Shown piece by piece: positions 1-6,070 of a stretch of 6,070 bases of DNA. The notes under the pieces are model-generated. The model had not been told where the DNA came from and made no database searches. It saw nothing but the letters and a program-made list of their open reading frames with translations. Positions within the stretch are counted from its first letter, which is position 1. Each line of letters starts with the position of its first letter. A program made the position numbers and the translations under genes. This stretch comes from a virus, in the IMG/VR virus record IMGVR_UViG_3300020041_000055, positions 1 through 6,070 of that record, one strand, 5' to 3'.

Positions 1-121
1 CTTCCCGTTTCTTCTCACACATGAAGGCATAAACTTTTGGCGTTCCGTTGATCAAGAGTGGCGAGCATTTGTCCGGCATCTTAATTTCAATTTTTAATCT
101 TATTTTTATGAGTCAAATCCA
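1..121. repeat. Terminal direct repeat, copy 1: exact duplicate of 5950..6070, the overlap of a circular genome in a linear window
   Basis: Base-by-base reading shows cttcccgtttcttctcacacatgaagg...ttatttttatgagtcaaatcca at 1..121 and again at 5950..6070 with no mismatch. The offset is 5,949 nt. Positions 1..97 are the duplicated 3' end of CDS 5732..6046 (stop TAA at 95..97 equals 6044..6046). The ATG at 108 equals the ATG at 6057. Confidence 0.97.
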
Positions 122-431
122 TGTAGTTCTTAGTCGTATCAATCCCGCTCTTGCGATTGATCTTGTTCGGTTAGGTCGTCTCGAAGACGGTCAATTTGTT
201 CAGCTGCCTCTTAACCTTTTTCCGGACACTCCTATTTCTGACTTGATCAGATTGACGGACATTTCCGATTCAGCCTATTTGCAGCATAAGGATGTTTCGC
301 GCCTTGTCTCGTCGCTTTCCTGTTATCCTGGCTTTGGCCTTGACTATTTTGAAAACACACTTGTTCTTGTTTTTGATTTTAACTTAGCTGAAGATGAAGT
401 CCCGACGTCGAAAGAAGACCCGCGGTCGTAA
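108..431 (+). CDS. Hypothetical protein, 107 aa, mildly acidic, no family recognised
   Basis: The ORF track gives 48..431 from a TTG. I prefer the in-frame ATG at 108, which lies 10 nt after the stop (95..97) of the preceding CDS and so avoids an overlap. It is on the same strand as all recognisable genes, and third codon positions are mostly T/C, as in the other genes. The translation starts MSQIHVVLSRINPALAIDLVRLGRLEDGQ... and contains no motif I recognise. Confidence 0.55.
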   Translation: MSQIHVVLSRINPALAIDLVRLGRLEDGQFVQLPLNLFPDTPISDLIRLTDISDSAYLQHKDVSRLVSSLSCYPGFGLDYFENTLVLVFDFNLAEDEVPTSKEDPRS

Positions 432-665
432 AACTGTAACCCGGCCGTTACTGGGGAGCGTTCTTTAGTTTTTGATCGTAAATTGATTGGCTTTTGCCGA
501 TATACAGAGTTGCGCTGCCGTTGAGAATGGCCGAGTGATGATTTCCGGTACCGAAGGTATCGCGGTCGCGAGACCGAGGTCCTGAAATCTCGCAGGCCAT
601 TTAGGCGCGCGGTTTTCGCGCTCAAAAGTACCGTCTTTTGAAGCGCATGATAATATTTGACAATT
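432..665 (+). promoter_or_regulatory. Largest non-coding region: hairpin-dense and locally GC-rich, candidate complementary-strand origin or regulatory region
   Basis: The + strand has no ORF longer than about 15 codons here. Four hairpins are readable directly: GTAAC(436..440)/GTTAC(447..451) with loop ccggcc; CGGTC(563..567)/GACCG(572..576) with a GCGA tetraloop; GCGCG(607..611)/CGCGC(617..621) with loop gtttt; and TCAAAAG(622..628)/CTTTTGA(635..641) with loop taccgt. CGGTACCG (546..553) is an 8-bp palindrome. Two possible long-range stems are AATGGCC(526..532)/GGCCATT(595..601) and TGCGCT(511..516)/AGCGCA(642..647). By my count 44 of the 70 nt at 551..620 are G/C. Confidence 0.5.
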
Positions 666-869
666 ATGGATATTTTTGATGCGTTCCGCCCGCGAACTTC
701 GCCTGTTGTTGAGGGTCAGCCACTTTGTTATTCCGTTGCAGCTTATCGCGGTAAAAAGCGTGTTGTTATCGCTTGGTTTTCCGACGAGACTTCCGCCTTT
801 GATTTCGTTACCCGTTGCCGTATTGATCGCCCTGACATTAAATATGATTGCATTAAAAGTCTTTTCTGA
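666..869 (+). CDS. Hypothetical protein, 67 aa, translationally coupled to Rep
   Basis: The ORF track starts at TTG 657. I prefer the in-frame ATG at 666 (MDIFDAFRPRTSPVVEGQPLCYSV...). The stop TGA at 867..869 overlaps the Rep ATG at 869..871 as TGATG. Third codon positions read out are predominantly T/C, matching the recognisable genes. The competing +1 ORF 676..936 is rejected as an alternative-frame artefact of the T-rich strand. No family recognised. Confidence 0.5.
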   Translation: MDIFDAFRPRTSPVVEGQPLCYSVAAYRGKKRVVIAWFSDETSAFDFVTRCRIDRPDIKYDCIKSLF

Positions 870-1939
870 TGGCATGCTCATCCCCTATATGGATACGGAA
901 TCGCCGCTATTTCGACAAGATGAATCCATGTCGTAATGGTTCTGACGTCGCAAAGTCAGCCCTGGCCCTTCGACCGTGGGATGTTGCGCGTCAATGGCTT
1001 ATGGTTCCCTGCGGAAAATGTGAAAACTGTCTGCGTCGTCAGCGTAACGACTGGTTCGTGAGGCTCGAACGCGAGCTTGCTCGATGCAAGGCAGAGCAGA
1101 AGCAGGCTATTTTTGTGACTATTACCATTGCTCCCAAGTATTATGACGAGGCCCTCGTTGATCCGTCGTCCTTCATTCGTCGATGGAATGAGCGGTTGCG
1201 TCATCGTATTGGTCATTCCTTCAAGCACGCTCTTTTTCAGGAGTTTGGCACTCACCCCGAAACCGGTTCCGAACCCCGTCTTCACTTTCACGGTTTTCTT
1301 TTTGCGACCAATACCCTTTATAACGATATTCGTTCTGCTGTTTCCGATTTAGGTTTTGTCTGGCTTTCGAAGGCTACCCTTAAGCGTGCGCGTTATTGTG
1401 TTAAGTATGTTACCAAACAAATTGAGTTTAAACCCGAGGATGTCTCGGATAAATATGTTACGATAAATGGATCAACCATATCACTGTCTTCTCTTCTCCA
1501 ACATCGCCGCTATACAAGGAAGTTTATTTCCGCTGGCGTTGGTGATTATCTTGGCGTTCGCCCTCGTCCTTCTGCCCGTATTTCGTCGTGGTCTTATCTT
1601 GATAGCAGAACTGGTGTCGATTATAAATATTCGATTCCTCGATACTATCTTCGATATCTTGAACAGAAAGACGAGATTCTTCGTTCGGTGGCCGCTGCTG
1701 ACTCTTATGCACGTTTCAGCAAGTCTCCTTTGGTTCAACATGTTGTTGCTTTGTGTGCTAAACGGTTCGGCCTCGATTCCTCCTTATCCCGTAGAGAGGC
1801 ATATTCGTGGGAAATCAAGCAAATGATGCGCTTTTCCGCATCTTCGCAAAAAATGCCCGATTTTGACCCTCCTACTTGGTTGGATCTTGATATTCTTCGA
1901 TTTTGGAGAGATCATTATAAACTTCAACTTCTTATTTAA
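869..1939 (+). CDS. VP4: Rolling-circle replication initiation protein, Microviridae VP4/gpA-like HUH endonuclease, 356 aa
   Basis: The translation shows motif I FVTITI (nt 1112..1129) and HUH motif LHFHGFLF (His-Phe-His at 1283..1291). It also shows the double-tyrosine catalytic motif YCVKYVTK (1394..1417), which compares with phiX174 gpA YVAKYVNK as I recall it. The N-terminal MACSSPIWIRN and the cysteine cluster PCGKCENC (1007..1030) are typical of gokusho/alpa-type VP4 proteins. Stop TAA is at 1937..1939. Confidence 0.93.
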   Translation: MACSSPIWIRNRRYFDKMNPCRNGSDVAKSALALRPWDVARQWLMVPCGKCENCLRRQRNDWFVRLERELARCKAEQKQAIFVTITIAPKYYDEALVDPSSFIRRWNERLRHRIGHSFKHALFQEFGTHPETGSEPRLHFHGFLFATNTLYNDIRSAVSDLGFVWLSKATLKRARYCVKYVTKQIEFKPEDVSDKYVTINGSTISLSSLLQHRRYTRKFISAGVGDYLGVRPRPSARISSWSYLDSRTGVDYKYSIPRYYLRYLEQKDEILRSVAAADSYARFSKSPLVQHVVALCAKRFGLDSSLSRREAYSWEIKQMMRFSASSQKMPDFDPPTWLDLDILRFWRDHYKLQLLI

Positions 1940-1942
1940 TTT

Positions 1943-3736
1943 ATGGGAAAACAACCTTTTATTTCGCACTCCGTAAATGGTTACTCTCGCTATGATGTTC
2001 CTGAGAGTAAAGCTTTTACGTGTACACCGGGTATTTTGTATCCGGTGCGTATCGATTTCATTAATGCTCGAGATCGCGTATCTATTGAGCAGGGCATCGA
2101 CGTTCGTAGTAACCCTTTGGCTGTTCCGTCGTTTAACCCCTACACTATTCGGTTGCATCGTTTTTGGGTGCCGCTCCAGTTGTATCATCCTGAGCTGAGA
2201 ACGAATAGCAGCAAGTTTGACATGAACGATTTGAGTTTGAATTTTGTTGCTGCTTCGTCGACTGCGTCTTATCCATTCACGTATCGCAATTATCCCTATT
2301 CTAATTCGCTACTTCGTTGGTTGCGTATCGTTCCCGCGTCCATTCCGGTCACAACCTCTAGTAATGTTCCCGTAACGGCTAATCTCTCGGCCGCCCAACT
2401 AGGACATCCTTCAGGTTGGTGCAACGCCGATTCTTATCTTGCTTATTGGGATATCGTCCGCAATTACTACAGCTATTCCCAGTGGGGACTCTATTCCTTC
2501 GCTTGGCCCAGTAGTTGGTATTTTATACCCAATAGCACCGGAGCTGGGTACAATGTCCCTCAGTTCAACGACTCCTCATCGTTCTTTTCGCAAAGATTTG
2601 GTAATCTTGAATTTTTGGATGCTTATTTTGAGAGTCAGTTCTATCCTTCGGCAGTACCTTCTTCGAACAATACGTATAATAGAGGAAACCTTTTTTCTCA
2701 GATAATCCTTTCGGATCTTGGCGCAACGATTACCGCTTCTAAGGATGGTTACCCTGTTTCCTCGATTTATCCTGGAAGTACTACTTTGACCGAAGCAGGC
2801 CCCGCGAATCAATTTTCTATCAATCCAAGTGATACACATGTTACTACTCTTGGGTCTTTCCTTGTGGCCCATCCGATGGCCGTTATACCTTCGAATCCCG
2901 ATCGTTACAGTCGGTTACTTCCTGTCGGTAGTGCTGCGGGGGTATCCATGTCCGGCGTTTCCACTATTCCCCAGTTGGCCATTGCTTCGCGTCTTCAGGA
3001 ATATAAAGACCTTCTCGGCGCTGGAGGAAGTCGTTATAGCGACTGGTTGGAAACGTTCTTCGCGTCAAAGATTGAACACGTTGATCGGCCTAAATTGCTT
3101 TTTAGTGCTTCACAGACTATTAACGTTCAGGTGATTATGAATCAAGCCGGCGCTAATAATTTTAGCAATAGCGAATACTCTATGCCTCCTCTTGGTCAGC
3201 AAGGTGGCGCTATCGCGTTCAATGACCGATTAGGTCGTCGACAATCCTATTATTTCCGCGAACCTGGCTATATGATTGATATGCTAAGTATTCGCCCTAT
3301 CTACTATTGGGCAGGCATTTATCCTGACTATCTCCACTACACTGGCGCTGATTATTTTAATCCTATCTATAACGATATTGGATATCAGGATATCCCTGGC
3401 TTTCAGTTTGGCTTTGGAACTACCTCGGCCACAGAGGCTGTAGCTTACGAACCCTGCTTTAATGAGTTTCGATCCTCTTACGATGAGGTTCTCGGTCAGT
3501 TGTCTTTCTTCCAAGGCAGTTCTGATTCTGCACCTCTTTATGCTTATTGGGTACAACAGCGCGTTTTGTCTGCAAGTTATAATCAGTATTACTCCCTTTT
3601 GTTTGTGGATATCGCTCAGGTAAATTCTCCGTTTATCTCCGCAATGGAAGACAATTTCTTTATCAACCTCTCGTATTCTGTTCAGAAGAAGAATTTGGTA
3701 AACAAAACCTTTGCAACCCGTTTGTCTAACCGTTAA
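1943..3736 (+). CDS. VP1: Major capsid protein, Microviridae VP1/F-like jelly-roll, 597 aa
   Basis: This is the largest ORF and starts 3 nt after the Rep stop. The N-terminal block reads FTCTPGILYPVRIDFINARDRVSIEQGIDVRSNPLAVPSFNPYTIRLHRFWVPLQLY. It follows the pattern I know from microvirus capsid proteins: G-x-L-x-P, then D-x-x-x-I, then PL-x-x-P, then aromatic-aromatic-VP-x-x-L. Size and genome context fit. Recognition is by memory of the family pattern, not by alignment. Confidence 0.88.
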   Translation: MGKQPFISHSVNGYSRYDVPESKAFTCTPGILYPVRIDFINARDRVSIEQGIDVRSNPLAVPSFNPYTIRLHRFWVPLQLYHPELRTNSSKFDMNDLSLNFVAASSTASYPFTYRNYPYSNSLLRWLRIVPASIPVTTSSNVPVTANLSAAQLGHPSGWCNADSYLAYWDIVRNYYSYSQWGLYSFAWPSSWYFIPNSTGAGYNVPQFNDSSSFFSQRFGNLEFLDAYFESQFYPSAVPSSNNTYNRGNLFSQIILSDLGATITASKDGYPVSSIYPGSTTLTEAGPANQFSINPSDTHVTTLGSFLVAHPMAVIPSNPDRYSRLLPVGSAAGVSMSGVSTIPQLAIASRLQEYKDLLGAGGSRYSDWLETFFASKIEHVDRPKLLFSASQTINVQVIMNQAGANNFSNSEYSMPPLGQQGGAIAFNDRLGRRQSYYFREPGYMIDMLSIRPIYYWAGIYPDYLHYTGADYFNPIYNDIGYQDIPGFQFGFGTTSATEAVAYEPCFNEFRSSYDEVLGQLSFFQGSSDSAPLYAYWVQQRVLSASYNQYYSLLFVDIAQVNSPFISAMEDNFFINLSYSVQKKNLVNKTFATRLSNR

Positions 3737-3748
3737 TACATTGACTCT

Positions 3749-4045
3749 ATGGCACTTGATTGGTTACTTGAAGACGCTCCCGCTTATGTTTCTCGCGGTC
3801 AGCGTATCCTTTCTGTCCTCGATGGTTCTGGATCAGTCGACGTCCTTCCTGGTCGCCCAGATGTGGTCGCTGAACCCTCTGACTTCGACAAGGGTGAAAA
3901 GTTCAACCCTGACATCGACTTCGATCCTAACTCCTTCTCTCGTATGGATAAGTTCGACGGCCTTGAGGTTGGACAGGAACTCATTGATTCTCAGCTCGAT
4001 AAAGCTAAGTCTACCTCAAAACCTTCTAATTCTGAAGAAAAATAG
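3749..4045 (+). CDS. Hypothetical acidic protein, 98 aa; possible internal scaffolding-like role is speculative
   Basis: ATG at 3749 lies 12 nt after the VP1 stop, and the stop is TAG at 4043..4045. The translation is rich in D/E (…AEPSDFDKGEKFNPDIDFDPNSFSRMDKFDGLEVGQELIDSQLD…). Third codon positions are mostly T/C. The overlapping TTG-initiated ORF 3711..4061 is Leu/Ser/Thr-rich alternative-frame sequence and is rejected. The scaffolding idea rests only on acidity, small size and position between the capsid and pilot genes. Confidence 0.6.
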   Translation: MALDWLLEDAPAYVSRGQRILSVLDGSGSVDVLPGRPDVVAEPSDFDKGEKFNPDIDFDPNSFSRMDKFDGLEVGQELIDSQLDKAKSTSKPSNSEEK

Positions 4046-4114
4046 TACCAGCTTTACTTGACGATATATGCTACGTGCGCGGACCCCTTCTGAAGAGTCC
4101 GTGAATTTCTGAAG
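4030..4114 (+). repeat. Three direct copies of the octamer TTCTGAAG within 85 nt, iteron-like
   Basis: Exact TTCTGAAG occurs at 4030..4037 (last codons of the 98-aa CDS), 4088..4095 and 4107..4114 (intergenic). I found no further exact copies when scanning the rest of the window by eye. Confidence 0.6.
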
Positions 4115-4152
4115 GTTATTGGTAACGACTGCAGGAGAGGCCGCGCATTTTT
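4076..4152 (+). terminator. Candidate structured element or terminator: long-range stem closed just before a T-tract, with a competing inner hairpin
   Basis: TGCGCGG (4076..4082) is the exact reverse complement of CCGCGCA (4141..4147), which is followed directly by TTTTT (4148..4152). An inner hairpin CGGAC(4080..4084)/GTCCG(4097..4101) shares bases 4080..4082 with the outer stem, so the two folds are mutually exclusive. The roughly 58-nt enclosed segment is atypical for a simple intrinsic terminator, hence the low confidence. Confidence 0.3.
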
Positions 4153-4177
4153 CTATCGTTCTTTAAATTTTATCCCT

Positions 4178-4369
4178 ATGTCTGACACTAAAACTCCTTT
4201 CTATAAGTCGAAGGCCTTTTGGACGCTTGTTTCGTCTATTATTGCCGCTCTATCAGCTTTTTTCCTTGCTTCGTGTTCCGCACAGGCAAAGGTTGCTCGA
4301 ACAGGCGTTCACATTGATACTGTTCGCGTAGATTACATTATTCGCTCGAACAATTTTACGCTTCCGTAA
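4178..4369 (+). CDS. Small putative lipoprotein, 63-aa precursor and about 31-aa mature peptide
   Basis: The translation is MSDTKTPFYKSKAFWTLVSSIIAALSAFFLASCSAQAKVARTGVHIDTVRVDYIIRSNNFTLP. It has a positively charged n-region (KSK), a hydrophobic h-region of about 20 residues, and the lipobox L-A-S-C with Cys33 encoded by TGT at 4274..4276. The ORF occupies its own non-overlapping slot. Its stop (4367..4369) is 1 nt before the VP2 ATG (4371). Confidence 0.6.
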   Translation: MSDTKTPFYKSKAFWTLVSSIIAALSAFFLASCSAQAKVARTGVHIDTVRVDYIIRSNNFTLP

Positions 4370-4370
4370 T

Positions 4371-5651
4371 ATGAGACTTATTGATTTCAAGTCCTACGTC
4401 GAACCTGTTTCCACAGGTGCTATACTCGGCGCTGCAGGCATTGCCGCTGGCGGTCAGGTCGCCTCTGGCCTTTTCAAGCCATCTCTTAAGAGGCAATGGA
4501 AGTATCAGCAAAAGCAAATGAAGCTTCAACAGCAGTACGCTTTGGAGCAGATGCAAAAGCAAGGTGAAATCAATTATGCTAACTGGCAGAAACAGTTTGA
4601 TTATGAGAATGCGTACAACGACCCCACGAAGGTTTTCGATCGTTACTTGAAGGCCGGCGTTACCCCTGCTGCCGTCTTAGGCTCTTCAGGCGTCGGCGTC
4701 AATGCTACTATGTCTGGCGGTTCTTCAGGTTCCGTTGGTGCTTCCGGCCCTTCAGGCGGCTCTTTTGACTTCTCCAGTCCTTTGCCTCCTGGTGCTGGCT
4801 CTGCCGCTGCAAGTGTCGCTCTCGAGTCCATGGGTGTTAATTCAACTATCGAACGCAATAAGGCTGCTGCTAATCTCGATAATGCCCAAGCTGAAGATAT
4901 TCGTAACAAGATGCCCACCAGGGAACAAGGCCAGGACCTTATCGAACTCGAGAAGCAACTAAAGCGAGCTAACATTGGCAGTCAGTCTTCGCTCGCTCGT
5001 TATTATGGCGAGTTGGCTATTAATCAGGAGGCCTACAACAAGTATGCAGATCTCGCTGCCACCTATGATTTTCAGCGCATTCAGTCCGCTTATGCTGAAC
5101 AGGTTGAGCGCACTAGGCGTATTCGTGCTGAAAATGATGCTGAAATTCCTCTTCTCGAACAGTCTGCTGCTGCTAACCTTGTTTATCTTTGCGCTATTGC
5201 CGATGCTGCTAAAGCTTCCGCTCGTGAGTCCCGTTCTCATGCTGATATTCTTGACATTCAGCAGAAGGATATGCAACGCATGTTTGAAGTCACTTGGGAA
5301 ACCCCTGTAAAGGTTCCCCTGGTCAACGAGAAGGGTCAACCCACTGGAGAATTCGAGGAGATTACAGGTCGTGAATATTACTCTTATCTCCGTGGTCTTG
5401 ATCTTGGTGAAGGTCGCCAGAGCCTGTCCGGTAACTGGTTTACCATCCGCAAGAACAAGAACGCTCTGTTTTATGATGTTACAAAGGCTTTTGCTACTGC
5501 CGCAGGCATCGCCGGTGCTTCCTACGTTGGTCGCAAGGCTGCGGGTCCCGCCGGCCCTGAAGGTTATGAAGAGATGCGAGAAGTTTACGGCCCTTCGGGC
5601 GACAGGATGGGCGGCACGTTCGTTCGTCGTAATTATTTTGAGAGAAATTGA
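4371..5651 (+). CDS. VP2: DNA pilot / minor capsid protein, Microviridae VP2/H-like, 426 aa
   Basis: It is the second largest ORF. An N-terminal Gly/Ala-zipper hydrophobic segment VSTGAILGAAGIAAGGQVASGLF lies at nt 4407..4475, followed by a Q/K-rich helix-like stretch. The block YNDPTKVFDRYLKAGVTPAAVLG (from nt 4614) resembles the YN-x-P...AG-(L/I)-NP block I know from gokushovirus VP2 proteins. A Gly/Ser/Ala linker spans about nt 4680..4820 and is followed by a long charged helical region. A second Gly/Ala hydrophobic segment AFATAAGIAGASYVG lies at nt 5487..5531. Stop TGA is at 5649..5651. Confidence 0.8.
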   Translation: MRLIDFKSYVEPVSTGAILGAAGIAAGGQVASGLFKPSLKRQWKYQQKQMKLQQQYALEQMQKQGEINYANWQKQFDYENAYNDPTKVFDRYLKAGVTPAAVLGSSGVGVNATMSGGSSGSVGASGPSGGSFDFSSPLPPGAGSAAASVALESMGVNSTIERNKAAANLDNAQAEDIRNKMPTREQGQDLIELEKQLKRANIGSQSSLARYYGELAINQEAYNKYADLAATYDFQRIQSAYAEQVERTRRIRAENDAEIPLLEQSAAANLVYLCAIADAAKASARESRSHADILDIQQKDMQRMFEVTWETPVKVPLVNEKGQPTGEFEEITGREYYSYLRGLDLGEGRQSLSGNWFTIRKNKNALFYDVTKAFATAAGIAGASYVGRKAAGPAGPEGYEEMREVYGPSGDRMGGTFVRRNYFERN

Positions 5652-5674
5652 ACAATTCTTTCAACCTTTTGATA

Positions 5675-5705
5675 TTTGCTGTTATCTTTTTTTGCCGTAT
5701 ATTTG
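5675..5705 (+). promoter_or_regulatory. Candidate Bacteroidota-type promoter: -33 TTTG plus -7 TAnnTTTG
   Basis: TTTG at 5675..5678 is followed by a 19-nt spacer and then TATATTTG at 5698..5705. This matches the Bacteroides consensus TTTG / TAnnTTTG as I recall it from Bayley et al. It lies in the 80-nt gap between VP2 and the next CDS, about 27 nt upstream of the ATG at 5732. The octamer ATATTTGC is duplicated at 5672..5679 and 5699..5706. Confidence 0.35.
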
Positions 5706-5731
5706 CATTGTAAACCAATAACTATATTGCT

Positions 5732-6046
5732 ATGAGAAAAAACAAACCTAGTCTCGATCCCCTTTACCTGGATGCCGCAGACTATATTTTCATTGAGTGG
5801 CTTGTTCGTCGCGGTTATTATTCGAGATTCAAGGATAACTTTATCAGGAACAACCCCGATTATGACAGCGCCCGCGAGGGTATTCGAGCCGTTCTTTCCA
5901 TGATTTTGCGTAGCAGGGCTTTTTCTTTTCGCGACGCTGTTTCTTCGTCCTTCCCGTTTCTTCTCACACATGAAGGCATAAACTTTTGGCGTTCCGTTGA
6001 TCAAGAGTGGCGAGCATTTGTCCGGCATCTTAATTTCAATTTTTAA
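5732..6046 (+). CDS. Hypothetical protein, 104 aa, Arg/Phe/Trp-rich, no family recognised
   Basis: ATG at 5732, stop TAA at 6044..6046. The 3' part (5950..6046) is duplicated at 1..97 because of the terminal overlap. It is on the same strand as all other genes and third codon positions are mostly T/C. The translation is MRKNKPSLDPLYLDAADYIFIEWLVRRGYYSRFKDNF... The 131-aa minus-strand ORF 5633..6028 is its codon-aligned antisense shadow. Confidence 0.55.
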   Translation: MRKNKPSLDPLYLDAADYIFIEWLVRRGYYSRFKDNFIRNNPDYDSAREGIRAVLSMILRSRAFSFRDAVSSSFPFLLTHEGINFWRSVDQEWRAFVRHLNFNF

Positions 6047-6070
6047 TCTTATTTTTATGAGTCAAATCCA
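5950..6070. repeat. Terminal direct repeat, copy 2: exact duplicate of 1..121
   Basis: See copy 1. All 121 nt are identical by direct reading. This copy contains the 3' end of CDS 5732..6046, the 10-nt spacer, and the first 14 nt (6057..6070) of the CDS annotated at 108..431. Confidence 0.97.

Follow-up and report, generated by a model that had tools for sequence, protein, structure and literature searches.

The prolipoprotein gene and its locus

We analyzed a 6,070-nucleotide (nt) stretch of viral DNA (IMG/VR virus record IMGVR_UViG_3300020041_000055, positions 1 to 6,070; referred to here as the window), with emphasis on a 63-codon open reading frame (ORF) that encodes a predicted prolipoprotein and lies directly upstream of the gene for the DNA pilot protein VP2. 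The window is a complete microvirus genome in which every gene is on the + strand. In GenBank, the closest records are unverified "Microviridae sp." genomes recovered from the feces of pigs, civets, and musk deer (~78-80% nucleotide identity). The features of the locus are as follows.

4075..4152 (structure to 4148), + strand: conserved structured noncoding element with a T-run, recognized by covariation, directly upstream of the lipoprotein gene
4178..4369 (stop included), + strand: 63-codon prolipoprotein gene, from the ORF call and selection data on homologues
4178..4213, + strand: n-region, codons 1-12 (MSDTKTPFYKSK), with K5, K10, and K12 against D3 (net charge, +2) and a ratio of nonsynonymous to synonymous differences per site (pN/pS) of 0.10
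4214..4273, + strand: hydrophobic h-region, codons 13-32 (AFWTLVSSIIAALSAFFLAS), a predicted helix
4265..4276, + strand: lipobox L-A-S-C, codons 30-33, with an invariant Cys and S, G, or A as the -1 residue
4277..4366, + strand: rest of the mature peptide, codons 34-63, a predicted beta-hairpin
4367..4373, + strand: junction TAA-T-ATG between the lipoprotein gene and the VP2 gene, with a 1-nt spacer
4371..5651, + strand: VP2 DNA pilot gene, from PHROG 8689 and 31272 ("pilot protein for DNA ejection") and the VP2 annotation in relatives

The ORF begins with an ATG at 4178 and ends with a TAA at 4367-4369. Its 63-amino-acid (aa) product reads MSDTKTPFYKSKAFWTLVSSIIAALSAFFLASC up to the predicted cleavage site and SAQAKVARTGVHIDTVRVDYIIRSNNFTLP after it; cleavage before Cys33 (codon TGT, 4274-4276) would leave a mature peptide of 31 residues. 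The n-region is positively charged, as in lipoprotein precursors, with K/R within the first 7 residues. It is followed by 20 residues (A13-S32) without any charge, an uncharged hydrophobic h-region that exceeds the typical length and in which Kyte-Doolittle windows score at least 1.6. The ORF satisfies a lipobox rule of the PROSITE PS00013 type (coded for the scan), and LASC fits the published consensus [LVI][ASTVI][GAS]C (PMC6139136). The original prediction, made from the letters of the window, had described these coordinates, the n-region, a core of about 20 residues, cleavage between LAS and C, and Cys33, all of which were found as described when we reread the sequence. It had also called the ORF a stand-alone gene 1 nt from VP2 and a lipoprotein outside the canonical microvirus gene set. 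Both points were borne out, and relatives keep a spacing of 1-2 nt or a short overlap at the junction with VP2. The TAA-T-ATG arrangement suggests translational coupling of the lipoprotein gene with VP2.

The presence of a lipobox in a single sequence is weak evidence, because 28% of dinucleotide-preserving shuffles of the window held at least one lipobox-type ORF. This frequency speaks for a chance ORF with a chance lipobox, and the claim of a gene is carried by comparative data. A profile search of 1.8 billion representatives at 50% identity returned 62 homologues, and the homologous clusters at 90% identity numbered 354. Selection was analyzed with 83 distinct nucleotide versions of the ORF from IMG/VR and GenBank loci. 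The pooled pN/pS in the ORF frame was 0.14. It exceeded 1 in all but one of the five other frames; that one (0.24) is the antisense frame that shares the third codon positions of the ORF. By codon position, 29 (first), 18 (second), and 61 (third) columns were variable (third positions varied in 61 of the 63 codons). Met1 and Cys33 were invariant (83/83). In the n-region, K10, S11, and K12 were invariant or nearly so; AFWTL, AAL, and FF were invariant in the h-region, as were R41, G43, H45, D47-R50, D52, Y53, and R56-N58 in the mature peptide. The pN/pS was 0.11 for codons 13-33 (Cys included), compared with 0.18 for the mature part. Conservation of the ORF and its Cys at the same locus, together with purifying selection on its frame, was what the original prediction had anticipated. 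The low pN/pS, the frame-specific variation at third positions, the invariant Met and Cys, the hundreds of homologues, and the conserved synteny refute the chance-ORF explanation, to which we attach a negligible probability. Judged by the same patterns, ORF 4178-4369 is a genuine gene.

The comparison also places the start of the gene at the ATG at 4178. Most database entries, including those from MG945455 and MG945456, carry a 100-aa version of the ORF (MLRARTP...), which we rejected because its upstream frame is not conserved and the region is base-paired. The 37-aa N-terminal extension in these gene calls is a translation of the structured element (4068-4177 in the window; 3218-3520 in MG945455). 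The in-frame open stretch upstream of the ATG comprises 39 codons in only 30 of the 83 loci and 4 codons in 24, with scattered lengths otherwise, and the window itself carries a frameshifting 1-nt deletion in this stretch.

Modular architecture, distribution, and conservation

In a diverse alignment with identities down to 26%, only Ala24 and Cys33 were invariant. The -1 residue was S, G, or A in at least 51 of the 56 representatives of the 50%-identity set. The other five are apparently script artifacts in which the Cys was taken three residues early, since the four with F at -1 are the same four in which the spacing from W to Cys was 15; this spacing was 18 in 44/56 representatives. The -3 position of the lipobox is relaxed in relatives (T or L), and the Cys is conserved. 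The family is mosaic. One signal peptide (KSKKFWTLVAAIVAALAAFF...SC) precedes unrelated mature peptides, of which type 1, that of the window, carries ...GVHIDTVRVDYIIRSNN..., type 2 is TARHYVVQSASSVKSGDTTRTTITYEQIGNFKRP (L112-L115, L144, L147, L149, L153, and L155-L158), and at least three are of further kinds. The type 1 mature peptide is also found behind different signal peptides (L085, 9899-10105; P0143; P0153). The constant feature is the [S/G/A]-Cys junction, which is kept when either the signal or the mature part is swapped. Judging from this pattern, the lipobox is selected as a lipobox, and the ORF product is very probably a true substrate of signal peptidase II, with the Glu that most type 2 members have at -2 as a caveat. 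The type II signal peptide anatomy of the original prediction is thus one that is conserved and under purifying selection.

Two further observations concern the mature peptides. By cassette exchange, a type 2 mature peptide has taken the position of type 1 in L115 (2780-2983) and in the other type 2 genomes listed above; the signal peptide and the conserved element on one side and VP2 on the other are retained, and VP1 and VP2 of these genomes are otherwise closest to those of type 1 genomes. The sole mature-peptide feature common to most types is a G-x(1-3)-D-[TS] turn.

AlphaFold2 (AF2), run on the diverse alignment, produced a model with a mean predicted local distance difference test (pLDDT) score of 80. 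A helix was predicted for residues 12-32 (block-mean pLDDT, ~90 for residues 11-30), followed by a beta-hairpin with strands at residues 35-42 (4280-4303) and 50-57 (4325-4348) (block-mean pLDDT, ~78-80 for residues 31-60). The predicted hairpin turn holds G43-H45-D47-T48. Within HIDTVRVDY (4310-4336, codons 45-53), the invariant stretch D-T-V-R-V, which is loosely TonB-box-like (D-T-I/V-x-V), fails the PROSITE-type pattern at two positions.

The gene was present in 77 of 80 IMG/VR loci picked by VP1 similarity alone (at least 68% identity), and the three loci without it were truncated contigs. All inspected megablast relatives have a type 1 or type 2 gene directly before VP2 and downstream of the same conserved element. 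With tblastn, the family was found in 30 GenBank microvirus records from the feces of pigs, rodents, lemurs, and tortoises, in which it is annotated as "hypothetical protein," left without annotation, or absorbed into "VP2." Two nr entries (DAM05898.1 and DAW10193.1) bear the name "MAG TPA: lipoprotein [Microviridae sp.]," and calling the product a lipoprotein is therefore not in itself new; a literature search found no paper discussing the gene family.

Among 185,579 species-representative genomes, the family occurs twice, both times in Alistipes. In Alistipes montrealensis (L084, NZ_JAGYXY010000001.1), the homologue is inside a microvirus prophage of 5.7 kb that has dif-like direct repeats of 21 nt on either side (9878-9898 and 15608-15628; TTACTATTATGTTAAAT(A/T)ATA). 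These repeats contain the XerD-arm-like TTATGTTAAAT. The second prophage with a homologue is in an Alistipes metagenome-assembled genome (L085, about 9900-13470). In both prophages, the first gene past the left junction, upstream of Rep, is that of the lipoprotein. Because both genomic occurrences lie in Alistipes prophages, the hosts are Alistipes or close Bacteroidales. A search of the window for a dif-like att site gave no significant match, and the window phage may therefore be purely lytic. We also considered the conserved upstream element as an attP site and dropped the idea, given the lack of a dif-like match in the window and the different sequence of the A. montrealensis att repeat. 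This distribution makes it one of the core genes in a lineage of gut microviruses associated with Alistipes (Bacteroidota).

When the window is compared with the A. montrealensis prophage, the lipoprotein module shows 69% identity across 52 residues, whereas the major capsid protein VP1 is alignable only in blocks (25-30% identity), VP4 is 27% identical, and VP2, with 31% identity over 91 residues, is barely alignable. Identity of the module to its counterparts in seven distant clades remains at 67-77% even though synonymous sites have reached saturation (pS, 0.64-0.84), a combination that indicates an old divergence under strong constraint rather than a recent transfer. In these comparisons, the lipoprotein is the best-conserved protein of the lineage, far above the capsid, pilot, and Rep proteins. 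Its type varies independently of VP1. Mean VP1 identity is equal within and between lipoprotein types, and 1 of 724 VP1 columns is diagnostic of the type. The type 2 genome L115 has a VP1 that is 91% identical and a VP2 that is 85% identical to those of type 1 genomes, and type 1 genomes are the nearest match for L115 in each VP1 window, including the hypervariable ones. Such independence of the VP1 loops weighs against an exclusion factor matched to the receptor. Taken as a whole, the comparative data depict the gene as a lineage-wide, ultraconserved, modular, putative envelope effector of Alistipes microviruses, and the lipoprotein nature of its product is strongly supported.

Possible functions of the lipoprotein

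Non-phiX174 microviruses rank among the most abundant phages of mammalian guts, and their egress is a long-standing gap for which the lipoprotein gene offers a concrete candidate. The original prediction held that these viruses have no assigned lysis gene, and the literature agrees (PMC3394797, PMC7062461, PMC9239249); in reviews and genome surveys, they are without protein E and only some have acquired peptidases (PMC3394797, PMC9239249, PMC7062461). A Pfam and PHROG scan of the window detected no endolysin, holin, i-spanin, peptidase, or lysis domain in the other ORFs. The prolipoprotein stands out among the products of the main called ORFs as the single one with clear membrane targeting: in ORF 48-431 and ORF 676-936, the hydrophobic windows fall within an overprinted frame or upstream of the probable start, and the hydrophobicity of VP2 is limited to its Gly-rich N-terminus.

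We prefer a lysis or egress effector over an exclusion factor, with a probability of roughly 40%. Lysis is favored because the gene is universal in informative relatives, is conserved beyond the capsid, has a constrained signal peptide, and has a type that is uncoupled from VP1. The h-region is under tighter constraint than the mature part and is common to unrelated mature peptides, a pattern not expected of a targeting signal alone. From the predicted anatomy, we infer lipidation, cleavage, localization, hairpin docking, and a lytic outcome. The basic n-region and the 20-residue helix would insert into the cytoplasmic membrane, Cys33 would be diacylglyceryl modified, and signal peptidase II would cut before Cys33. 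The product would be a 31-residue net-basic lipopeptide with a two-stranded beta-hairpin body, tethered to a periplasm-facing membrane leaflet. In Bacteroidota, acidic residues after the lipoprotein Cys direct surface exposure; since such residues are absent after Cys33, no surface exposure is expected. The hairpin would most likely dock, through strand addition, on an envelope protein of the host that is strongly conserved, and the lipoprotein would act as a single-gene lysis protein that compromises envelope biogenesis or integrity. The constrained helix of the signal peptide may contribute in the inner membrane, like the stable signal peptide of the colicin lysis lipoproteins. If this is true, the target would be a new weak point in the Bacteroidota envelope, with a minimal lipopeptide inhibitor in hand.

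A more specific version of the lysis proposal is one that we hold a little more tentatively. It states that the ORF fills the place of the missing lysis gene in a non-phiX microvirus lineage and that its product would be the first lipoprotein-type single-gene lysis protein of a phage, a hairpin "protein antibiotic" with a cofunctional signal helix that disables a conserved envelope-biogenesis machine of Bacteroidota, and that analogues arose repeatedly in gut microviruses. Also in favor of lysis over exclusion is the inspection of 10 distant gut microviruses, a "spread" sample of GenBank microviruses obtained with tblastn; a broader capsid-profile scan of IMG/VR returned close relatives only. 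Stand-alone small lipobox ORFs were present on the sense strand in 4/10 of these genomes and on the antisense strand in 0/10. One of the four is a family member, and the other three have good lipoprotein signals but unrelated mature parts (L162, 3945-4133; L166, from 6178, 67 aa with a TTG start; L168, from 5829, 83 aa). The sole genome of the 10 with an annotated peptidase (L167) has no lipobox ORF. The signal peptide of L162 resembles the alternative signal peptide of L085.

Several observations weigh against lysis. The protein has no sequence or fold similarity to any lysis protein, and the family is restricted to a small fraction of microviruses (the 30 GenBank records mentioned above). 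At position -2 of the lipobox, most type 2 relatives carry Glu, which is atypical (LESC). Mature-peptide types that are exchanged behind one and the same signal are closer to arms-race specificity cassettes, as expected for exclusion or immunity, than to an effector with a single essential target, and temperate relatives have the gene first after attL, a typical place for a conversion gene. The lysis factor could also be a structural protein with a second role, like A2 in Qbeta. Finally, the only characterized stand-alone small lipoproteins of lytic phages (Llp, Cor, and Rtp45) are exclusion factors, which also dock through beta-strands (PMC9586334, PMC12685063).

Searches for known relatives were largely negative. 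The window lipoprotein had no Pfam (Lysis_col, Rz1, and Entericidin included), NCBIfam, or named PHROG match, and the PHROG search gave only weak matches to families of unknown function. A profile search of Protein Data Bank (PDB) sequences (2026 copy, which should include FhuA-Llp and LptDE-Rtp45) gave no match, and Foldseek against the BFVD viral models retrieved only the family's own members. Two matches were too weak to use: the PADLOC candidate defense protein PDC-M02A over the lipobox-to-hairpin region (E values of 0.011 for the window and 0.0028 for P0127) and Pfam LptM_cons (E value of 0.14, two members). On these searches, the gene is a variant of the small phage lipoprotein theme with no known relatives outside its own family.

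The closest parallel in size is provided by the colicin lysis or bacteriocin release proteins. These are prolipoproteins of about 45-52 aa that yield a mature lipopeptide of about 28-33 aa, and both the lipopeptide and the long-lived signal peptide permeabilize the envelope, causing quasi-lysis. The window protein is of the same size class (mature part, 31 aa) and has a conspicuously conserved signal peptide, whose constraint would be consistent with a second function. However, colicin lysis proteins are plasmid-borne and enterobacterial and act via the phospholipase OmpLA, whereas the mature part of the window protein is a predicted beta-hairpin of other sequence, and PF02402 (Lysis_col) was matched neither by the window protein (E values up to 0.1) nor by 23 members of the family (E values up to 10).

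A superinfection-exclusion or "lytic conversion" lipoprotein would block adsorption or DNA entry in infected or lysogenic cells and spare progeny from being lost on debris. The window protein is similar to Llp (T5), Cor (T1/phi80), and Rtp45 (Rtp), which are small stand-alone prolipoproteins encoded near host-recognition genes, with the mature part facing the periplasm (PMC9586334, PMC12685063). A small periplasm-facing lipoprotein with a predicted beta-strand body would suit this role, as Rtp45 (about 6 kDa) docks on LptD via an intermolecular beta-sheet and Llp jams the FhuA plug (PMC9586334, PMC12685063). The position of the gene between the capsid (receptor-binding) and pilot genes, its place as the first gene after the dif-like attL in Alistipes prophages, and the swapping of discrete mature-peptide types as cassettes are also consistent with exclusion, and gokushovirus carriage gives superinfection immunity to which no gene is assigned (PMC7062461). 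The weak match to the candidate defense protein PDC-M02A points the same way. Nevertheless, known exclusion lipoproteins pair with the receptor-binding protein, whereas the lipoprotein type here does not covary with VP1. The module is far more conserved than the capsid, whereas the Llp/Cor/Rtp45 group is fast evolving, with 35% identity between related phages (PMC12685063). Exclusion leaves the strongly constrained signal peptide unexplained, and the lack of a dif-like site in the window leaves room for a purely lytic phage. The mature part is 31 aa, compared with 61 aa for Llp and about 6 kDa for Rtp45, the carrier is a 6-kb single-stranded DNA (ssDNA) microvirus of Bacteroidota, and no sequence similarity (PDB sequence search) or fold match to the three proteins was found. 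We therefore regard exclusion as doubtful while giving it real weight; if true, the protein would be the smallest known exclusion factor and the first in ssDNA phages, and it would identify the receptor or entry route of gut microviruses. Another envelope role, such as tethering replication or assembly to the membrane, readying the envelope for VP2 events, or modulating host TonB-dependent or Lol/Bam/Lpt function, would accord with the conserved tight coupling to VP2 and with the loose TonB-box likeness of the invariant strand G-x-H-x-D-T-V-x-V. Such a role is unlikely, given that it has no microvirus precedent, that an exported peptide cannot contact cytoplasmic assembly intermediates, and that the idea is unspecific.

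In two other explanations, the envelope would be attacked by a different part of the protein or by a different route. The N-terminal hydrophobic helix, whether cleaved or uncleaved, could be the effector, binding and inhibiting a membrane-embedded enzyme of cell wall synthesis (for example, MraY or MurJ) in the manner of phiX174 E or the single-gene lysis proteins (Sgl) of single-stranded RNA phages, or oligomerizing into a pinholin-like lesion, with the Cys and hairpin serving topology or stability only. The h-region is the most constrained part, is common to homologues with unrelated C-terminal peptides, and contains small-xxx-small motifs (AALSA). As with E and other single-gene lysis proteins, the product is small and membrane targeted, and it comes from a small-genome phage without an endolysin. 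E tolerates replacement of its C-terminal domain, and the occurrence of a short form and of long forms with disordered tails parallels this tolerance. However, the type 1 hairpin is highly conserved behind different signal peptides and so has a function of its own, and the [S/G/A]-Cys, strictly kept at one position, is an argument that signal peptidase II processes the protein. Moreover, E is overprinted inside gene D and is not a lipoprotein and has no lipobox, whereas the lipoprotein ORF is a stand-alone gene that is not overprinted, sits between the noncoding element and VP2, and has no Pfam or PHROG match to E. An effector helix is thus improbable. The spanin-type role mentioned in the original prediction fared worse still. 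In that scheme, the window protein would be an o-spanin analogue that disrupts the outer membrane, and ~200-aa long forms in the Alistipes-prophage clade (described below) would be u-spanin-like. Both spanin types require a lipoprotein signal, the window protein shares the N-terminal signal and canonical lipobox of lambda Rz1 and T1 gp11, and u-spanin periplasmic domains are predicted to be beta-rich (PMC6139136); the long forms end in a moderately hydrophobic stretch followed by a basic C-terminal tail. On the other side, no endolysin, holin, or i-spanin was found in the genome, the protein ends 30 residues after the Cys, leaving a 31-aa mature peptide that is too short to span the periplasm, and it has no C-terminal transmembrane domain, proline-rich periplasmic domain, or periplasmic Cys. 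In the AF2 model of the long form P0127, there is no C-terminal helix and the pLDDT is <50 beyond residue 60, and the C-terminus of the long forms has its homologue in a separate 24-aa basic ORF. We consider a spanin very improbable.

Neighboring features and long forms

The remaining genes of the window are as follows.

48-431, 657-869, and 5732-6046, + strand: small ORFs
869-1939, + strand: Rep/VP4
1943-3736, + strand: major capsid protein VP1
3749-4045, + strand: acidic 98-aa ORF, which occupies a VP3-like scaffold position

The structured element upstream of the lipoprotein gene (4075..4152) has an anchor motif that was present in 102/115 loci. Its structure comprises 22 pairs, of which 8 have compensatory changes. 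Paired cells in the alignment amounted to 97.8%, compared with 92.7% in shuffles (0/500 reached the observed value) and 32-48% in controls with slid partners. G-U pairs assign the structure to the + strand. Even microviruses that have no other DNA in common with the window by megablast carry the element at 87-89% identity. Folding of the single sequence was unexceptional (z of about -1), and the structure is visible through covariation only. An Rfam search of the whole window returned no family. Scans for sigma-70 promoters and simple terminators found none above the level of shuffles and none at the locus, although these consensus patterns are not apt for Bacteroidota. The element may be a (-)-strand origin, or a leaky terminator or attenuator between the capsid/scaffold genes and the lipoprotein/VP2 genes.

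An unannotated ORF for a highly basic 24-aa peptide (MKSRRRKKTRGRKTVTRPLLGSVL) is located at 394-468 on the + strand, in a different frame from ORF 48-431, whose 3' end it overlaps. A Met is found exactly 24 codons before the stop in 100/111 genomes. The peptide is a candidate for a J-like DNA-binding protein, equivalent to J of phiX174 and alpha3. For the annotation of these genomes, three corrections follow from the analysis, namely, the true start of the lipoprotein gene, the structured cis-element that has been mistranslated, and the missed gene for the 24-aa J-like peptide.

Long forms of ~200 aa are encoded upstream of Rep in the prophage clade (L084, 9977-10585; L086, 1512-2114; L087, 634-1218; and L088-L094). 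They consist of the lipoprotein module, about 110 low-complexity codons, and a J-like basic peptide. The middle part overprints a gene that is read in another frame and is better conserved (motif FDPxxxPVYTC). Homology links the basic C-terminus (RRGGRRGKPRPKIKTIPLGGSHL) to the separate 24-aa ORF of the window clade, and in most loci checked this C-terminus has its own GTG or TTG start 27-30 codons before the stop. Because of this homology and the separate start, the long form is probably a read-through of overlapping genes. We rejected a u-spanin topology for the long forms: the AF2 model of P0127 shows an N-terminal helix only, the middle is overprinted, and the C-terminus corresponds to a separate ORF.

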